A stretch of DNA of 64,000 bases from a virus: IMG/VR virus record IMGVR_UViG_3300005542_000007, positions 64,001 through 128,000 of that record; one strand, written 5' to 3'. Numbering within the stretch: position 1 is the stretch's first letter; the number at the start of each line of letters is the position of its first letter. The position numbers and the translations under genes are program-made. Below the pieces are notes generated by a model. That model had not been told where the DNA came from and searched no databases. It worked only from the letters and a program-made list of their open reading frames with translations. Positions 2,737 to 57,482 of this stretch are shown piece by piece.

Positions 2737-3087
2737 GTGGCCGACCCAACGACTAATTTACATACAGGTACAGAAACTGCAAGTGGAACTAGCATTGCCT
2801 TTGGTCTTCCTACCAACCAAATAGTAGGAGTATTTGTAAATGTCTCTGCTGTTTCTGGTGTTTTACCAACTCTTGCTATTTCTGTAGAGCAGTCTCCCAA
2901 TGGAACTGATTGGTATAATATTCCAAATGCTTCAGGCACTGTTTCTTTTGCGGGTATTAATACTGTTGCACTTTTTAGCGTATTTCCTCCAACTGGTCAA
3001 CCCTGCTGTGATACTATACGATGTGCCTGGACGATTGGTGGAGTAAATCCAAGTTTTACTTTTACCGTGGATATTGTTAACTATTAA
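2737..3087 (+). CDS. Small beta-sandwich hypothetical protein
   Basis: GTG start after GAAGGAG RBS; VEQSPNGTDWY motif typical of phage structural beta-sandwiches. Confidence 0.5.
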   Translation: MADPTTNLHTGTETASGTSIAFGLPTNQIVGVFVNVSAVSGVLPTLAISVEQSPNGTDWYNIPNASGTVSFAGINTVALFSVFPPTGQPCCDTIRCAWTIGGVNPSFTFTVDIVNY

Positions 3088-42847: not shown

Positions 42848-43828
42848 ATGAACAAAATCCTCGAAGTTAAATTTGGCAGTCACCTCTATGGAACGGATAC
42901 CCCCGAAAGCGATCTCGATTTTAAAGGTATTTATTTACCAGACGCTCATCAAATTGTTTTGGGCAGAGCCAGTAAGAATGTCAGCACAAGCCGTTCAAAG
43001 CAAGAGTTTGAGAAGAATAGTAAAGATGATGTAGACCGAGAAACTTTCAGTCTCAAGGAATATTTGAAGCTCCTTTGTGAGGGACAAACTGTTGCTCTGG
43101 ACATGCTTTTCTCTCCCGAATCCTTTCATGTATTTAAAGGGGAAAATACTTACGTTTTGTTTCAATACATTTATCAGAATAAAGATAAAATCCTTTCCAA
43201 AGGTATTTTGAGTTTTGTCGGATACGCACAAAAACAAGCTTCGAAATACGGTATTAAAGGTTCTCGTGTTCGAGCAGTGAAAGATACAATTGAGTTTTTG
43301 AATGGCATTAAAGACGAGCAATCGCTGTTGAAAGAGATTCGAGTAGTACTAGATTCTTTTGTTGCCAGGGGCGATGAGTTCATCAAATACGTTGAGATGA
43401 CAGATCCCAACAATGTTCTGGTTACTTATTTTGAAGTGTGTAACCGTAAATTTCAAATGACGAACTCTGTTAAATATGTGTTGTCCATCCTAAATAGAAT
43501 TTACAATGAATATGGACAACGGGCAAAGTTGGCTGAAGTTAACGATGGGATTGATTGGAAGGCGCTGAGTCATGCCGTGCGCGTAAATTTTGAAGGACAG
43601 GAATTGTTAAAGACTGGGTTCATTACTTTTCCCTGCCCGGAGAGAAAGCTCCTTCTGGATATCAAAACAGGCAAGGTACCGTATAAAGAAGTAGAGGTAT
43701 TAATTGAGACTGGATTGCAGGATTTAGAAACAGCACAGAAAGCTTCTAAGCTGCCAGAGAAGCCCGATTTGGAATGGGCTGATAATTTCTTATACGATGT
43801 TTACAGCGATATTGTGAAACGAGGATAA
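42848..43828 (+). CDS. Predicted nucleotidyltransferase (Pol-beta superfamily)
   Basis: FGSHLYGT.TP.SD.DFKGIYLP; DWKALSHAVR; SKLPEKPD. Confidence 0.85.
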   Translation: MNKILEVKFGSHLYGTDTPESDLDFKGIYLPDAHQIVLGRASKNVSTSRSKQEFEKNSKDDVDRETFSLKEYLKLLCEGQTVALDMLFSPESFHVFKGENTYVLFQYIYQNKDKILSKGILSFVGYAQKQASKYGIKGSRVRAVKDTIEFLNGIKDEQSLLKEIRVVLDSFVARGDEFIKYVEMTDPNNVLVTYFEVCNRKFQMTNSVKYVLSILNRIYNEYGQRAKLAEVNDGIDWKALSHAVRVNFEGQELLKTGFITFPCPERKLLLDIKTGKVPYKEVEVLIETGLQDLETAQKASKLPEKPDLEWADNFLYDVYSDIVKRG

Positions 43829-47775: not shown

Positions 47776-48180
47776 ATGGCTTCAAAAGAATATATGCGTA
47801 ATTGGTACTTAAAAAATAGGGAAAGAAATTTGGAGAAGGCCAAAATTTATCGTCAATCTTATCCAGGGGCTCAACGAATGAGAGAAAAACGTTTACGTGG
47901 GCAGACATTTATAAATGAAGCAAAAAATAAACCTTGTATGGATTGTGGTGTTCGTTATGCTTCTTGGATAATGCAGTTTGACCACAGAGATCCAACACAA
48001 AAGAGATTTACAATTTCATCTTCTACTTCCCGTTCCTTTGTAGATTTACAAATTGAAATGGATAAATGCGATGTTGTATGTGCTAATTGTCATGCAGAAA
48101 GAACGCATAAATTAGGTAAATTGTTTAGACCAGGAAGACCAGTCGCGGAACGGAAATATACTAAAAGGAGTCCAAAGTGA
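47776..48180 (+). mobile_element. HNH endonuclease
   Basis: PCMDCG...MQFDHRDP...KCDVVCANCH. Confidence 0.88.
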
Positions 48181-48803
48181 ATATTATCCCCACTGTGGTA
48201 GAAAAAATGACCGGAGCGGGGTCAATGGTTTCCTACGACCTCCTTTCCCGTTTGATGCAAGATAGAATTTTATTCGTAGGTGGCAATCACGGAGCCATAA
48301 GTTTGGACGATGCTAATATCCTAATTTCGCAGCTTCTTTATTTGGATTCGATTGACCCAGGTAAGAAAATTGAAATGTACATCAATTCTCCAGGTGGGGA
48401 GGTTTCAGCGGGCCTTGCTATTCTGGATACAATGAATCACATCCAAAGTCCTATCACGACAATCTGTTTAGGAATGGCAATGTCTTTTGGGGCTGTTCTA
48501 TTGAGTGCTGGGGAACCGGGAAAACGTTTTGCTCTTCCAAATGCCCGTATCATGATTCACCAACCATTGATTTCTGGAGGTGGGATATCGGGTCAGGCGA
48601 CTGACATTGAAATTGAAGCAAAGGAAATGACTCATTGCAAAACATCCCTTACAAAAATCCTCGCAGCCAACTGCAATCAGAAATACGAGAAGGTTTTGAA
48701 GGATTGCGAACGCAATTTTTATATGTCAGCAGAGGAAGCAAAAGAGTATGGGTTGATTGATAACGTGATTGTTCCGCACAGGAAATTGGATAAACACGTT
48801 TAG
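48177..48803 (+). CDS. clpP: ClpP protease proteolytic subunit
   Basis: YDLLSRL..DRIL, YINSPGG, GMAMSFG (Ser), RIMIHQP (His), GQATDI, MSAEEAKEYGLID; ERN replaces the usual ERD at the triad Asp. Confidence 0.93.
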   Translation: MNIIPTVVEKMTGAGSMVSYDLLSRLMQDRILFVGGNHGAISLDDANILISQLLYLDSIDPGKKIEMYINSPGGEVSAGLAILDTMNHIQSPITTICLGMAMSFGAVLLSAGEPGKRFALPNARIMIHQPLISGGGISGQATDIEIEAKEMTHCKTSLTKILAANCNQKYEKVLKDCERNFYMSAEEAKEYGLIDNVIVPHRKLDKHV

Positions 48804-48967: not shown

Positions 48968-49156
48968 ATGAAAACGTTGCGTAAACCAGCCATACCTTGC
49001 ATTTGTGGACACAGCCGGACATCTCATAAAGGTTGGGGACATTGGAAAGTATGTATGGACCCGCTTATTGATTTTGAAGAGTGTGAATGCGATAAATATG
49101 TTCCAGACAATCTCTCTTACATAGAGAAGCTTGCAAAAAAGAAAAAGCTAGTATGA
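48968..49156 (+). CDS. DNL-tail Cys/His family member 5
   Basis: CICGH...H...CEC...DNLSYIEKLAKKKKLV. Confidence 0.7.
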   Translation: MKTLRKPAIPCICGHSRTSHKGWGHWKVCMDPLIDFEECECDKYVPDNLSYIEKLAKKKKLV

Positions 49157-49929
49157 TAAAATTAAACGGCAGAACAATTACTCCGACCGTATTTCCCGAC
49201 CACTCTTCCCAGGTGTGGAAGGTGCCGGAAGAGTGTTTCCATGTACCAGGGAATGTCATTACTTGGGAATTTGAGAACGAGGCTGAATTTTTACACGTCG
49301 CACAACTCAAGGACCTTATCCACAGCGTGGTGGGATATGGGGAAGTGATTTTGGACCTTCCCTACCTTCCTTACGCAAGACAGGATAAAGAAGTTTCAAA
49401 TAAATCGACCTTTGCACTGCATACGTTTGCAAGGTTGTTAAATTCATTGGAATTTACGAAGGTTGTGGTTTTTGACGCACACAACTACTCTTTGTCGTAT
49501 GAGTTGATTAATTGTCTCGACATTGTTATCCCGGACATCGAACCTCTTGCCAAAGAATTAAATGCTACGGTTGTATACCCAGATTCTGGTGCCGGGACAC
49601 GCTACCAAGATTCTTCAGTTGGGGACGTTATCATTTGTGAGAAAGAAAGAGATCCCTTGACAGGTGAAATCAAAGGTCTTTTAATCAACGATAACATTGA
49701 AGCCGGAACTTATTTGATTGCGGATGACATTTGCGACGGTGGCAGGACGTTCATTGAAGTGGCTAAGAAGCTTTACAAATTCGGAGCTACAGAAGTGCAT
49801 TTGTATGTGTCACATGGGATTTTTTCAAAAGGGCTGCAAGTATTACGAGATGCTGGAATCAAACGAATCTTTACACGAAAAGGAGAAGTACATGAGCAAC
49901 GATTATTTGCCAGCGACACTACTGTGTGA
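49153..49929 (+). CDS. Ribose-phosphate pyrophosphokinase-like enzyme (candidate Adps)
   Basis: FPD, LPYLPYARQD, D.H, YPD.GA, IADDICDGGRTF, VSHGIFS. Confidence 0.88.
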   Translation: MIKLNGRTITPTVFPDHSSQVWKVPEECFHVPGNVITWEFENEAEFLHVAQLKDLIHSVVGYGEVILDLPYLPYARQDKEVSNKSTFALHTFARLLNSLEFTKVVVFDAHNYSLSYELINCLDIVIPDIEPLAKELNATVVYPDSGAGTRYQDSSVGDVIICEKERDPLTGEIKGLLINDNIEAGTYLIADDICDGGRTFIEVAKKLYKFGATEVHLYVSHGIFSKGLQVLRDAGIKRIFTRKGEVHEQRLFASDTTV

Positions 49930-51403
49930 TTTCTACAAGGTCAGCCACCGCGCCCAGTATCCAAAAGGGACGGAAGTGGTGTATTCAACGTGGACGCCAA
50001 GAACATCTCGTTTACTCGACGTTCAGGAAGTGGTTCACTTTGGTGCCCAGGCATTCATCAAAGAATTCCTGATTGAATTCTTCAACAAGAATTTCTTTGA
50101 GCGAGAGCAGGAAGATGTTGTGAACGAATACAAACGAGTGATTCAGTATGCTTTGGGTGATTCTGCTCCCGCCTTTGAGCACATTATTGAATTGCACAAT
50201 TTGGGTTACTTACCGCTTAAAATTAAATCGTTGCCAGAAGGCTCCGTGGTTCCTCTTAGGGTTCCTACATTAACAGTTCAAAATACCCATCCTAAGTTTT
50301 TCTGGCTCACCAACTATATTGAAACTCTCCTTTCTGCCGAGATGTGGCAAGCTTCCACTTCCGCCACAATTGCCAGAGAGTATCGAAGAGTGTTTGAAAA
50401 GTACGCTTTGGAAACGGCTGGCGGTATTGATTTCGTTCAGTTTCAAGGCCACGACTTCTCTATGCGTGGTATGGGAACAGTAGCATCTGCCATAAAGAGC
50501 GGCATGGGACATCTGCTTTCTTTTGCAGGAACGGATACAATTCCAGCAATTCTGGGCTTGGAGCATTACTACAACGCCAACATTGAAAAGGAATTGGTTG
50601 GTACTTCAATCCCTGCTACAGAGCATTCTGTGATGTGTGCTAATGGTCGTGATGAATTCGCCGCTTATAAACGAATTATTACAGAGGTATACCCCAAGGG
50701 ATTTGTATCTATTGTGTCGGATACTTGGGATTTGTGGGAAGTGTTGGATAAAGTAGTTCGTCCTTTGAAGGACACAATCCTTGCTCGTGAAGGCAAAGTA
50801 GTTATTCGTCCAGATAGCGGAGACCCAGTTAAGATTGTTACGGGCGACCCAGAAGGAAAGACAGAGGCAGCACGTAAAGGCGTAATTGAAATCCTGTGGG
50901 ATATTTTTGGCGGCACGTATAACATTGTATGGGACGGTGAGAAAAATGTTGGATACAGGCAACTCGACCCACACATTGGTTGTATTTATGGGGATGCTAT
51001 TACTCGAACTCGTGCTCAGGATATTTGTGAAAGGCTAAAGGCAAAAGGCTTTGCCTCGACCAATATGGTATACGGCATTGGCTCTTATACATACCAGTAT
51101 AATACTCGTGATACTTTTGGGTATGCTATGAAGAGTACCCTTTGTGTTATTAACGGGCAAGAAGTTCAAATCTTCAAAGATCCTGTTACAGATAACGGAG
51201 TAAAAAAGTCACAGAAAGGTGGAGTAAGAGTATTCGAACATAATGGAGAATTAGTATATTTGGATCAATTTTCCTTGGCCGAATCTAATGAAAACACACT
51301 GCTAAGGGATGTATTCGTCGATGGTAAACTATTGGTGGATGAGAAGTTTTCAGATATCAAGGCAAGAGTTCTTCAATCGTTGGAACAAAAAGCTTCTGTA
51401 TGA
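49892..51403 (+). CDS. Nicotinamide phosphoribosyltransferase-like enzyme (candidate Namat)
   Basis: DFYKVSHR.QYP, HDFSMRG, SIPATEHSVM, SIVSDTWD, VIRPDSGDP, IYGDAIT, KDP.TD; AAGGAG RBS before ATG 49892. Confidence 0.92.
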   Translation: MSNDYLPATLLCDFYKVSHRAQYPKGTEVVYSTWTPRTSRLLDVQEVVHFGAQAFIKEFLIEFFNKNFFEREQEDVVNEYKRVIQYALGDSAPAFEHIIELHNLGYLPLKIKSLPEGSVVPLRVPTLTVQNTHPKFFWLTNYIETLLSAEMWQASTSATIAREYRRVFEKYALETAGGIDFVQFQGHDFSMRGMGTVASAIKSGMGHLLSFAGTDTIPAILGLEHYYNANIEKELVGTSIPATEHSVMCANGRDEFAAYKRIITEVYPKGFVSIVSDTWDLWEVLDKVVRPLKDTILAREGKVVIRPDSGDPVKIVTGDPEGKTEAARKGVIEILWDIFGGTYNIVWDGEKNVGYRQLDPHIGCIYGDAITRTRAQDICERLKAKGFASTNMVYGIGSYTYQYNTRDTFGYAMKSTLCVINGQEVQIFKDPVTDNGVKKSQKGGVRVFEHNGELVYLDQFSLAESNENTLLRDVFVDGKLLVDEKFSDIKARVLQSLEQKASV

Positions 51404-51592
51404 AAGGGCGAAAAACTTGAGTAATTGTGGTTCTTGTGGAATTGAAGTTCCTGAAGGGCAGCGCCATTGTTCAATGTGTTACGGCGATCCCTACTATGGG
51501 AGTGATGGATATTATTTGGCGTGGTTAGAAGACGCATATCGACAGGAACAAGAGAAGCCGCAATATGAAGAAGGGCCACAGCAGGAGCCCCA

Positions 51593-51790
51593 ATGAACAA
51601 GCGTGTTGCTTACCTCTACATTCTCACAGTATTCTTTGTTGTGGGATTTTATCTGTTTGGTAAGGGTGAAGTATTTGGAATAGAAAGATACAAACACAGC
51701 AAAAATATGTATGGAGCCCTCAAAGCAGCTTATCGAATGGGATACGAAGATGCTAAAGCAGGGCGTTCTATGGACTGGGATGGGGAATAA
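51593..51790 (+). CDS. Small membrane protein
   Basis: AGGAG RBS; N-terminal TM helix. Confidence 0.55.
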   Translation: MNKRVAYLYILTVFFVVGFYLFGKGEVFGIERYKHSKNMYGALKAAYRMGYEDAKAGRSMDWDGE

Positions 51791-52713
51791 TGAAAGACCT
51801 TATTATGTCGGATGACATTCCTCCCAAACCCATAGGAATTACGAATGGGACTATTACGCTAATGGAAGATGCTTCAGGACTTGCTAGTAAATTGGTTGTT
51901 CAATATCATTACAGCCATAAAACTACTCCCAATCATTTTTTAAGTTTTCTCGTTAATAAGGACCAGGGCGCTTTACAGTTGGGGTATGGTATTCGTCCTG
52001 CTATGAAGCATACCATTTCCAAAGATATTGTAAAGGGTAACTATTGCGAGTTTGATAGGATGTGGTTAAGTGATGTGATGCCAAAGAATAGTGAAAGCCA
52101 AGTTATCGCCTTGTTGTTGAGTTACTTAAAACAAGTACACCCGAGAATTAAATTCGTTATTACTTATGCGGATGAAAGTGTGGGTAATAAAGGTACAATT
52201 TATCAAGCTACCAATGCTATAGAACTTCCCAGTGTTCCAACGGATTTTTACTTGCTTCCTTCTGGTGAACGTATTCATCCTGTAACAATGTGGCATAGGC
52301 ACAAAACCAGAGCAAAAGCTTTTGTAGAGAAACAGTATCCCGGTATTAAACACATTAAAGGAACGTATAAACAACGACGTTATTTATACATTCTTAATAA
52401 CGGTTTGCGGAGAAAGTTTCAAGAGCGAAACGATGTGCTTCCAGCACATAAGGCGAAGTGCGATTCTTCGGCTCCGCTCCAATTTAAGCAAACTAAAAGT
52501 GACGTTATTTTTAAAGAGGTGTTTGATATGAAAAAATTCAATGAAGAATACCCAAAAGTGGTAGAAGGACTGCGGTTATTTTTAGGCGAAATTTACCTTG
52601 CCTTGGAAGAGGGCAAAACCATTTCTAAGGATAATTTTGCCGAGGGTTGCAAAATGCATTTAGGAAACTTAAAACAGTTTATTAGCGACAATGAAACCCA
52701 ACGCCCTAACTAA
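51790..52713 (+). CDS. mom: Mom-family (GNAT-like) DNA adenine modification enzyme
   Basis: YHYSH, CEFDRMWL....PKNSES, ITYAD...G..GTIYQATN: Mom family motifs. Confidence 0.82.
   Translation: MKDLIMSDDIPPKPIGITNGTITLMEDASGLASKLVVQYHYSHKTTPNHFLSFLVNKDQGALQLGYGIRPAMKHTISKDIVKGNYCEFDRMWLSDVMPKNSESQVIALLLSYLKQVHPRIKFVITYADESVGNKGTIYQATNAIELPSVPTDFYLLPSGERIHPVTMWHRHKTRAKAFVEKQYPGIKHIKGTYKQRRYLYILNNGLRRKFQERNDVLPAHKAKCDSSAPLQFKQTKSDVIFKEVFDMKKFNEEYPKVVEGLRLFLGEIYLALEEGKTISKDNFAEGCKMHLGNLKQFISDNETQRPN
52407..52481 (+). tRNA. Non-canonical tRNA-Gly(TCC)-like element embedded in mom CDS
   Basis: GCGGAG/CTCCGC acceptor + T73 + CCA; GTTT/AAAC D-stem; ATGTG-CTTCCAG-CACAT anticodon arm; CGAAG-TGCGATT-CTTCG T-arm. 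Confidence 0.8.
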
Positions 52714-53568: not shown

Positions 53569-54741
53569 TTGCGATCCCTCTACCTTTTAGCAATTCTCAT
53601 TTTCTTTAACCAGGGCATTGGCTCTCTTGCTGCCCAACCTCTCTACTACTTCCTTCGGGAAACACTTGGAATTGGCATTCCCACAATTATGATGCTTGGG
53701 GCACTTGCCAATCTTCCCTGGCTGATTAAACCCGTATGGGGATTCCTCAGTGATTCATTCAGCATTTTTGGATATCGTAGGAAGAGTTACATTATTTTGT
53801 TTTCTCTTTTAGGGACGGTTTCTTTTCTTCTTATCGGTCTTTCACCGTTTATTTCCCTTCCCGTTCTTGTCGGTCTGATGATTTTAGGGTCGATTGGAGA
53901 AGCGGGCGGGAATGTAGCCGTAAATGGTATGGGGGTAGAAGAGGGAAACAAGGATGGAACGACAGGTAAGTTTCAGAGTGTTTGTTGGGGAGCATTGGGT
54001 GTGGGTTCCGTTCTTACTGGAGTTACGGGCGGTTACATAGCGGAAAAAGCCTCATACCACCTTGCTTTCGTTATATTGGCTCTTTTCCCTATCCTGATTG
54101 CTGTAATGGCCCTCCGGCATCCAGAGCAGAAAGCAGAAGCTTCACATAAAGCTGTAGGACCCATAATTAAAGACTTTCTAATAAAATTAAAAAATAAGCA
54201 GATTTTCCTTTGCAGCTTGTTTTTATTTTTCCTTTGGTTCAGCCCCTCTTTTGGAACACCCCTTTTGGACAGGATGCGAACAGTGCTCCACATGTCAAAA
54301 GTATGGATTGGCTGGCTTGACACGATTGGGTCTGCTTGCGGAATTGTCGGAGCTATGGTATACTTTAAAGTGAGTAAGAGTATAAACATGAAGCGTTGGT
54401 TGTACTACGGAACGGTCTTAAGTGCTTTGGCTACGTTTGCGTATTTGTACCTGACACCCACCACTTTGTTTTGGTACACAATAGTGTTTGGGGTAGCTTC
54501 ACAGTTCATTCATTTGTTGATGCTGAATCTTATGGCGATGACTTGTCCAGAGGGAACGGAAGCAACCACGTATGCTTTGCTGTGTTCCCTTGTTAATTGT
54601 GCATCTTTCTTTTCTAATTTGGTTGGAGCTAAATGCTTCGCTCTATTTGGGTATAACGGGTTGATTATTATTTCAGGAGTGACAACGCTCATGTGTTTGG
54701 GATTCATTCCGTATCTTGAGGTAAACAAAAATGTCTTGTAA
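53569..54741 (+). CDS. MFS transporter, folate-biopterin (BT1/FBT) family
   Basis: About 12 TM segments; LPWLIKPVWGFLSD...FGYRRKSY, FQS.CWG, CPEG.EAT.YALL signatures. Confidence 0.85.
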   Translation: MRSLYLLAILIFFNQGIGSLAAQPLYYFLRETLGIGIPTIMMLGALANLPWLIKPVWGFLSDSFSIFGYRRKSYIILFSLLGTVSFLLIGLSPFISLPVLVGLMILGSIGEAGGNVAVNGMGVEEGNKDGTTGKFQSVCWGALGVGSVLTGVTGGYIAEKASYHLAFVILALFPILIAVMALRHPEQKAEASHKAVGPIIKDFLIKLKNKQIFLCSLFLFFLWFSPSFGTPLLDRMRTVLHMSKVWIGWLDTIGSACGIVGAMVYFKVSKSINMKRWLYYGTVLSALATFAYLYLTPTTLFWYTIVFGVASQFIHLLMLNLMAMTCPEGTEATTYALLCSLVNCASFFSNLVGAKCFALFGYNGLIIISGVTTLMCLGFIPYLEVNKNVL

Positions 54742-56690: not shown

Positions 56691-57482
56691 ATGAGTTTAC
56701 TTAAACACATTTACAATTGGCGTAGGGATCTTCCAGACTGGAGAGATAAACGATACAGGGAGCATCGTTTGCTTGGAGCGTTGCCTCCCCCACCTCCAAT
56801 AGTGGATTTGCGTCAACAATGCAGCCCAGTGGAAGACCAAGGACAATTGGGTTCCTGTACATCCTTTGCTTGGGCAGGAATGCTTGAGTTTCTTGAATTG
56901 CAAGCTTTAAATAATAAAGTTGCTTCTCCTGAAATCCTCACCCCAACTTATACGCCCTTCTCCCATCTTTTCATTTATTACAATGAACGCTTTATTGATG
57001 GGGATGTGAGTCAAGATGGTGGATCACAATTGAGGACAGGAGCACAGGCTGTTGCAACTTATGGAGACTGTAGTGAACCCACTTGGCCGTATCAGATTGA
57101 ACAGGTATTTGTTAAACCCTCTGATGTTGCTTTTGCTGAAGCAGCTAATCACAAAATCAGCGTCTACTCCAGGCTGGAATCGGCTGAGGATTACAAAGCG
57201 TGTTTAGCTGAAGGATTTCCTTTTGTATTTGGTGCGACCTTATACGAGAGTTTTGAAAGTGGAGTTATAGCTTCCACAGGTATTGTTCCAATGCCTTCAA
57301 TGAACGAAAGTGACATTGGTGGACACGCAATCCTTTGTGTTGGGTACGATGAAACAAAGCAGCATTATATTGTGCGTAATTCTTGGGGAACGGGCTGGGG
57401 CGATAAAGGGTATTGTTACTTTCCAATGGAATATATGGAAAACCCAGACCTTTGTTCAGATATGTGGACGGCAAGGAAATAG
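56691..57482 (+). CDS. C1A papain-family cysteine peptidase
   Basis: VEDQGQLGSCTSF, GGHAILCVGY, RNSWG..WG.KGY. Confidence 0.93.
   Translation: MSLLKHIYNWRRDLPDWRDKRYREHRLLGALPPPPPIVDLRQQCSPVEDQGQLGSCTSFAWAGMLEFLELQALNNKVASPEILTPTYTPFSHLFIYYNERFIDGDVSQDGGSQLRTGAQAVATYGDCSEPTWPYQIEQVFVKPSDVAFAEAANHKISVYSRLESAEDYKACLAEGFPFVFGATLYESFESGVIASTGIVPMPSMNESDIGGHAILCVGYDETKQHYIVRNSWGTGWGDKGYCYFPMEYMENPDLCSDMWTARK

Follow-up and report, generated by a model that had tools for sequence, protein, structure and literature searches.

A tRNA-Gly-like RNA gene overlapping the 3' end of a phage Mom-family gene: a candidate glycyl donor for DNA hypermodification

Introduction

Why should a transfer RNA (tRNA) cloverleaf of glycine identity lie across the end of a gene for a DNA-modifying enzyme? 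The question was raised by a stretch of viral DNA of 64,000 nucleotides (nt) (positions 64,001 to 128,000 of IMG/VR virus record IMGVR_UViG_3300005542_000007; hereafter the window), in which the open reading frame (ORF) of a Mom-family protein stayed open through a tRNA-Gly-like sequence of 75 nt at 52407-52481. From the letters of the sequence, an original prediction had read the two as an enzyme with its own donor tRNA, channelling glycine away from ribosomes into DNA. The prediction was followed up here by comparison with relatives of the protein and of the RNA.

In phage Mu, Mom uses Gly-tRNAGly to place glycine on the N6 position of adenine in double-stranded DNA, where an on-base rearrangement follows (Silva et al. 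2026, Nat Commun 17:4787, PMC13219725), and the donor named in the original prediction is thus established for Mu Mom. All three E. coli tRNAGly isoacceptors serve the enzyme, Gly-tRNAAla does not, and recognition of the acceptor end was suspected by the authors; catalysis requires residues R111 and S124 (PMC13219725). Gly-tRNAGly-dependent formation of N6-carbamoylmethyl-adenine was shown only for the Mu enzyme and a handful of mined homologues (PMC13219725).

Results

Structure and detection of the cloverleaf

The minimum free energy (MFE) fold of 52407-52481 was exactly the predicted cloverleaf (-26.8 kcal/mol), with the anticodon UCC at 52440-52442 and an encoded CCA at 52479-52481, as originally claimed. 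The cloverleaf began on the last base of codon 205 in the mom ORF. The acceptor stem paired G1-C72, C2-G71, G3-C70, G4-C69, A5-U68 and G6-C67, with A7.G66 mismatched, and was followed by A8 and A9, a D stem (GUUU/AAAC) with D loop CAAGAGCG, an anticodon stem of five pairs (AUGUG/CACAU) with the 7-nt loop CUUCCAG, a variable loop of 4 nt (AAGG), a T stem (CGAAG/CUUCG) with the T loop UGCGAUU, and U73. The T loop, A8 and the A7.G66 mismatch agreed with the original reading; the loss of GG from the D loop held for G18, replaced by A, but not for G19, which was retained. Positions A8, C14, A18 and G55 were non-canonical and U33, G19 and C56 were retained, and the window copy departed in part from the elongator core set (U8-A14, G18G19, T54-Psi55-C56, U33, 7-nt loop). 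The identity set of bacterial glycyl-tRNA synthetase (GlyRS) consists of G1-C72, C2-G71, G3-C70, U73, C35 and C36, and the window copy had all of these elements. The three tRNAs at 39.3-39.5 kb carried canonical D loops with GG and GTTCGA T loops (ARAGORN), also as predicted.

Fold energy by itself was mildly unusual (z -2.3; 6 of 200 shuffles were as stable). ARAGORN made no call at 52407-52481 when run on the window, and the Rfam tRNA model (RF00005) gave nothing there at E ≤ 10. A covariance model built from 32 relatives with the window copy left out matched 52407-52481 and no other site in the 64 kb (82.1 bits, E 1.4e-19); none of the three ordinary tRNAs of the window was matched. It is this comparative evidence, and not the fold energy, that places the cloverleaf beyond chance. 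The four arms, with six acceptor pairs and a mismatch, were agreed by MFE fold, covariance models and RNAalifold, and the 141,877-bp record held a single copy. On comparative grounds, 52407-52481 is a real, conserved, tRNA-shaped RNA gene of glycine identity.

Relatives and covariation

Loci encoding Mom relatives were fetched from viral (31), metagenomic (80) and genome (2) sequences. Loci L001-L113 came from freshwater and groundwater samples. Close Mom homologues were mostly of 204-266 amino acids (aa), with C-terminal tails that aligned poorly yet shared odd fixed strings, and at the equivalent site ARAGORN independently found a tRNA-Gly (UCC, ACC or CCC) in 11 relatives. A first covariance model (R1), built from five copies and run on 89 Mom sources, gave 51 full-length matches (55-95 bits) and two clipped by contig ends, always on the strand of mom. 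More than 60 loci of metagenomic phages had the same RNA next to a Mom gene, with more than 50 distinct copies.

Over 46 distinct rows, stem cells were paired in 99.3% of cases, both sides had changed in 16 of the 20 pairs, and 264 cells were compensatory. The family had a covariation score of 0.714; column shuffles reached 0.157 and slid partners 0.07-0.12. A model-free alignment (MAFFT with RNAalifold) recovered the same cloverleaf, with compensatory changes in 15 of 21 pairs, while the Rfam tRNA threshold (29 bits) was passed by 3 of 20 relatives. Conservation and covariation of the cloverleaf beside other mom homologues, proposed with the original prediction as a check, were therefore strongly borne out.

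Two kinds of R1 match were placed outside the family. Weak matches upstream of mom at three loci (L080-L082; 22 bits) were set aside, as was a match of 40.8 bits in Methylophilales phage Melnitz, an ordinary tRNA-Trp with CCA anticodon, A1-U72, G73 and canonical loops. The Melnitz tRNA-Trp (L116:170-243; MZ577097.1 68570-68643) carried A8 and lay 1 kb upstream of a Mom-like gene, inside an annotated hypothetical coding sequence.

Conserved and free positions

Positions were counted in 43 distinct full-length copies. Near-invariant were G1 (41 of 43), C2 (43), G3 (43), C70 (43), G71 (43), C72 (38) and U73 (39) in the acceptor, and C35 (42), C36 (41) and A37 (40) in the anticodon loop. Apart from A37, these are the identity elements of bacterial GlyRS, which argues for a chargeable tRNA; the identity elements noted in the original prediction were thus the best-conserved positions of the family. 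The canonical U8 and A14 were replaced by A8 in all 43 copies and by C14 in 42, and G10, U11, U13, A44 and G53-C61 were also fixed.

The decoding end varied. U33 was kept in 27 copies and lost in 16, wobble position 34 was free (U in 20, A in 18, C in 2, G in 1), the anticodon loop was 5 nt long in five or six copies, and positions 32 and 38 were Watson-Crick complementary in 30 of 38. At the elbow, G19-C56 was present in 39 of 43 copies, positions 18 and 55 co-varied (G-U in 13, A-G in 29) and so did 54 and 58 (U-A in 20, G-G in 21), the window copy combining A18/G55 with U54/A58. By this co-variation the elbow, and with it an L-shape, is kept. The pattern as a whole is what one would expect of an L-shaped RNA that GlyRS and the enzymes processing tRNA ends must still recognise, and it argues for a tRNA that would be chargeable and is no longer selected for decoding.

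Reading frame and the mom ORF

Relatives read the RNA in all three frames: frame 2 as RRKFQERN (window), frame 0 as AVEVSREI or AEQVSKKTR, and frame 1 at one locus. The mom stop codon lay anywhere from +6 to +304 nt from the tRNA start, and the read-through tails did not align as protein between relatives. Reading in three frames and the scatter of stops therefore indicate selection on the RNA and not on a protein tail. The original description of a tRNA inside the coding sequence was right in that the ORF reads through; the RNA is better described as overlapping the 3' end of mom, since the tail is conserved neither in frame nor in length.

Features of the locus are collected in Table 1. The 61-aa gene downstream matched no Pfam or PHROG family and was absent beside mom in all related loci examined; with no family and no conservation, it was rejected as a component of the system. 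It falls in frame with mom because the tRNA and spacer are free of stop codons, and the 307-aa 'protein' is, as read from these features, a gene-calling fusion of mom with the next gene.

Table 1. Positions in the window of mom, the RNA gene and the features that follow them
Feature	Position	Strand	Basis or remark
Mom-family DNA adenine-modifying enzyme, conserved core	51790..52404	+	codons 1-205 of the 307-codon ORF 51790-52713
Codons 206-246 of the mom ORF, read-through tail, unconserved	52405..52527	+	translated from tRNA and spacer
tRNA-Gly-like RNA gene, 72-nt body plus encoded CCA	52407..52481	+	MFE fold, leave-one-out covariance model, family covariation
Shine-Dalgarno-like AAAGAGG	52513..52519	+	8 nt ahead of ATG 52528; read from sequence
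Small separate downstream gene, 61 aa	52528..52713	+	own Shine-Dalgarno and ATG

The ORF was open across the whole cloverleaf. Residues 31-213 matched Pfam PF25680 (Mom; 139 bits against a cut-off of 27.1, E 2.2e-40), the ORF also matched PHROG 1384, and the core matched the crystal structure of Mu Mom (PDB 8BV8, E 2e-20), with the alignment ending at residue 203. R90 and S103 aligned with R111 and S124 of Mu Mom and were invariant across 25 homologues. Profile and catalytic Arg/Ser confirmed, at the level of sequence, the product as a Mom family member. The Pfam match reached residue 213 (profile position 196 of 202) and took in RRKFQERN, eight residues translated from the acceptor and D arm of the tRNA; the C-terminal end of the Pfam profile may in part be translated tRNA sequence.

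Three Mom domains stood in a row at one locus (L007:1501-3818), a window-type mom of 233 aa being followed by a 515-aa ORF with two Mom domains (Pfam, two stretches, E 4e-76). A tRNA-Gly-like gene with anticodon ACC (3006-3080) lay between the two domains of the 515-aa ORF, with read-through in frame. Similar multi-Mom arrangements occurred at L013, L031, L091, L092 and L137.

An imperfect long hairpin (52361-52393) lay within the last conserved mom codons, ended 14 nt before the tRNA and gave a spurious mir-889 match. It was rejected as part of the system since it was not conserved: the equivalent 60 nt folded with a mean energy of -4.85 at loci with the tRNA and of -4.45 at loci without it. 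In a scan around the locus, promoter-like sites were no commoner than in shuffles, and the terminator scan found none after the tRNA.

Association of the RNA with Mom

Overlap with the 3' end of mom was the arrangement at most loci. The RNA also stood at the 3' end of Moms whose identity to the window Mom was only about 30% (L128, L129, L135, L141-L144), upstream of mom (at L126 and L139 ending 4 nt before the Mom ATG, at L099 intergenic), between two Mom domains (L007, L013), and unlinked to Mom in the same genome at distances of 2.2 kb (G008), 11.5 kb (G007) and 26-30 kb (G006). Two Mom-family genes and one unlinked tRNA-Gly-like gene were present in each of G006 (a complete phage of 216 kb; L125, L147, L151) and G008 (L140, L149, L150).

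Searching IMG/VR for the conserved 5' motif of the RNA irrespective of Mom gave 25 loci, of which 22 were model-positive. At least 17 of these 22 contigs had a Mom gene, adjacent in most; three RNA-positive contigs without Mom were 3%, 17% and 51% complete. Mom-like matches occurred in 136 of 50,697 phage records, and with Mom this rare the co-occurrence is very unlikely to be due to chance. Among the same 50,697 records the best match to the window Mom was 51% identical, in an unannotated faecal contig without the element, and all others were below 36%.

Two related loci (L130 and L131; IMG/VR 3300030382_000915 and 3300011252_000161) had flanks more than 90% identical and a 110-bp tRNA block 98% identical, with mom bodies that could not be aligned: one shared 68% identity with the window Mom, and the other was divergent (62 bits to Pfam). 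The pair looks like a cassette swap, suggested by the sequence comparison, in which mom was exchanged and the tRNA kept.

At L122:5145-7807 (a 73-kb contig, 51% complete), an RNA with a 5-nt anticodon loop followed a gene for an N6/N4 DNA methylase and an ORF of 306 aa without Pfam family.

Phage record and neighbouring genes

The source was a 141,877-bp IMG/VR virus record of 40% G+C, about 74% complete, with the gene content of a large tailed phage (baseplate wedge, helicases, UvsX-like recombinase, exonuclease). Two genes upstream of mom, a 95-aa ORF (51309-51596) without Pfam match carried a CxxC-(10)-CxxC zinc-ribbon-like motif, in a placement reminiscent of Mu Com. Com is the zinc-finger translational activator of Mu mom. 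A phosphoribosyltransferase-domain gene overlapped a nicotinamide/nicotinate phosphoribosyltransferase gene (NAMPT_N + NAPRTase; 49153-51403), probably an auxiliary pair for NAD salvage. Further genes encoded a BT1/MFS transporter of folate-biopterin type (53569-54741), a ClpP protease (48177-48803), a papain-family cysteine peptidase (56691-57482) and an RlaP-type nucleotidyltransferase of an RNA-repair pathway (42848-43828).

Discussion

Proposed role of the RNA

Taken together, conservation, coupling to Mom and the chemistry of Mu Mom suggest that the RNA is a phage-supplied glycyl donor for DNA hypermodification by Mom, and probably a non-translating one; this is the reading we consider likely. 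The RNA would be transcribed together with mom and released by host tRNA-processing enzymes. Host GlyRS, as conservation implies, would charge it, and charging is the proposed reason why G1-C72, C2-G71, G3-C70, U73, C35 and C36 have been kept. Mom would then take the glycyl group for hypermodification of phage DNA at N6 of adenine, by the chemistry established for Mu. Core and anticodon loop have drifted from the needs of the ribosome, and hence the RNA probably supplies glycine without competing in translation; the amino acid would reach Mom largely outside the translational pool. The original proposal of an enzyme with a private donor tRNA thus stands as the best-supported reading, with the donor role a deduction from these lines of evidence and with an RNA that is optional.

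A more elaborate scheme is tentative and, on balance, doubtful. In it the enzyme and RNA would be an orthogonal glycyl-donor pair insulated from EF-Tu and the ribosome, and release by RNase P would cut the mom message before any stop codon, so that each transcript would yield either enzyme or donor and the dosage of a toxic modifier would be controlled through non-stop mRNA rescue.

Several observations weigh against the donor role or narrow it. Mu Mom works with host tRNAs, which means that Mom activity does not depend on the RNA; the Mu mom locus showed no tRNA-like element. When 93 distinct Mom cores were placed on a quickly made maximum-likelihood tree, 45 had the RNA and 46, within the flanks searched, did not; its presence was clustered on the tree, where the trait had to change about 11 times, and well-supported branches forced no fewer than 5-6 of these changes. 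No copy was found elsewhere in five phage genomes whose sister Mom had no RNA beside it (three were at least 90% complete). Since about half of the close Mom relatives lack it, the RNA is an optional accessory, and its distribution marks it as an exchangeable accessory or booster, not an obligatory subunit. No cultured phage with this Mom clade was present among the 50,697 phage records. T-stem pairs 49-65, 50-64 and 51-63, by which EF-Tu binding is tuned, varied freely across the family and were not consistently weak; the argument that the original prediction had built on A51-U63 fails as a shared trait, and exclusion from translation therefore rests on other positions. Nothing is irregular in the 7-nt anticodon loop of the window copy, with its U33 and UCC, and roughly one relative in four is near enough to canonical tRNA for a call by ARAGORN; some copies might also decode. 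Lastly, no Mom gene was found anywhere in the 73-kb contig of L122, a gap that another partner enzyme or mere incompleteness of the genome could explain.

Alternative explanations

The structure could serve the mom transcript in cis, by marking it for processing by RNase P or RNase Z, by stabilising its 3' end, or as a decoy that mimics the substrate and lets Mom hold down its own synthesis. Such a role would suit an element that at most loci shares its strand with the mom ORF and overlaps it, where cleavage at the tRNA 5' end would leave a mom mRNA without stop codon, and an enzyme that is toxic and tightly controlled in Mu, with translational control of mom through Com. Copies upstream of mom (L099, L126, L139), however, and those 2-30 kb away (G006-G008) cannot act on mom mRNA in cis, and neither a processing signal nor a decoy has any need of C35, C36 and U73, which are near-invariant. 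A purely cis-acting element is thus unlikely; a regulatory side-effect of processing is compatible with the donor role and can coexist with it. Less likely again is an ordinary translational tRNA-Gly that happens to lie beside mom and supplements codons or replaces host tRNAGly hit by defence toxins. Phages commonly carry tRNAs, this genome has four others, and the anticodon loop of the window copy and the 11 ARAGORN calls would fit. An ordinary tRNA would not be expected to recur with Mom in several arrangements, even with Moms 30% identical, to lose U33 in 16 of 43 copies, carry A34 in 18 of 43 and in some a 5-nt loop, to have U8 and A14 replaced, to score low or nil with the Rfam tRNA model, or to be located apart from the phage tRNA cluster at 39.3-39.5 kb.

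That the RNA has a different partner, as a decoy for tRNAGly-targeting toxins or as donor for another aminoacyl-tRNA-dependent enzyme, with the Mom linkage secondary, appears very improbable. Toxins of this kind are known (10.1101/2024.07.05.602228), and at L122 the RNA accompanies a DNA methylase and the 306-aa ORF; against this stand the Mom genes on most RNA-positive contigs, for the greater part adjacent, and the rarity of Mom among phage records. A decayed tRNA or attachment-site remnant without present function would explain why tRNA detection programs make no call, and integrative elements often carry tRNA fragments. A remnant of an attachment site would match a canonical host tRNA and decay, not co-vary, whereas here compensatory changes in 16 of 20 pairs over more than 40 distinct sequences keep the full cloverleaf; covariation excludes this explanation, to which we give next to no weight.

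Relation to known systems

An RNA of this class had been described in 2011, without a function. McMurdie et al. (2011, BMC Genomics 12:287, PMC3146451) found that a mom homologue contained, in its first 150 bp, a tRNA-Gly-like locus of 76 bp that was conserved and had DCC as its apparent anticodon. Its carriers were ssrA islands of Dehalococcoides and a deep-sea fosmid, pipelines labelled it 'pseudo-tRNA', no function was proposed, and Mom was thought at the time to act by 'methylation' (PMC3146451). Compared by description only, that locus and the present one are alike in being a tRNA-Gly-like cloverleaf with an NCC anticodon, written into a Mom-family gene and, in annotation, usually overlooked or marked 'pseudo'. 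They differ in position and host: the 5' end of mom in bacterial integrative islands there, the 3' end of mom in a large phage of lytic type and in many metagenomic phages here. The window enzyme shares with Mu Mom the family and the conserved catalytic Arg and Ser, and the co-substrate of the Mu enzyme is glycyl-tRNAGly, which Mu takes from host tRNAs. The text of Silva et al. (PMC13219725) mentions neither phage-encoded or embedded tRNAs nor the 2011 locus, and literature searches found no paper linking the mom-embedded tRNA-Gly-like locus to the Gly-tRNA chemistry of Mom.

Staphylococcal tRNAGly NP1-NP3 are used by FmhB, FemA and FemB and preferred by FmhB (Rietmeyer et al. 2020, NAR 49:684, PMC7826273). 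They are charged normally by GlyRS, bind EF-Tu and the ribosome poorly, have T-loop UGC in place of UUC, and form a cluster stated to occur in staphylococci only (PMC7826273). The original prediction saw the same changes in the window copy. This is true of the T-loop UGC, and D and T regions are altered in both; it does not extend to the weak A-U T-stem signature, which is not conserved in the phage family. The staphylococcal RNAs are also a separate lineage, their acceptor is a peptidoglycan precursor and not DNA, and poor binding to EF-Tu and the ribosome was measured for them, whereas for the phage RNA we infer it. The phage RNA would accordingly work like the NP tRNAs, as an analogue and not as a member of their lineage.

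The 3' ends of plant-virus RNAs such as that of TYMV carry pseudoknotted tRNA-like structures that can be aminoacylated and serve replication and translation. There too a tRNA mimic lies within a longer protein-coding transcript and is recognised in it by host tRNA enzymes. The phage RNA differs in being a true four-arm cloverleaf, in belonging to a DNA phage and in occurring also as a stand-alone gene.

Significance

Beyond the class described in 2011, the present analysis shows that the RNA can overlap the 3' end of mom in a large phage and brings together over 50 distinct copies; it further contributes the reading of the RNA in three frames, the co-variation at the elbow, an RNA-first test of the association with Mom, and the status of exchangeable accessory. 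If the donor role is true, this would be the first case of a virus encoding a tRNA reserved for chemistry outside the ribosome, and the first of a tRNA set aside for DNA hypermodification. Only one natural class of 'non-proteogenic' tRNA, that of the staphylococcal Fem system, would precede it, and the orphan 'pseudo-tRNA' found in mom in 2011 would be accounted for. Such a role would expose a double mis-annotation, in which tRNA finders miss the RNA and gene callers fuse ORFs (the 307-aa ORF here, the 515-aa double Mom of L007). The locus would offer a compact two-part cassette for the study and engineering of tRNA-dependent DNA modification, and the variation within the family (free wobble base, loss of U33, the G54-G58 and A18-G55 elbow, mismatches at 1:72) would serve as a natural mutational map that sets the needs of GlyRS and Mom against those of the ribosome.

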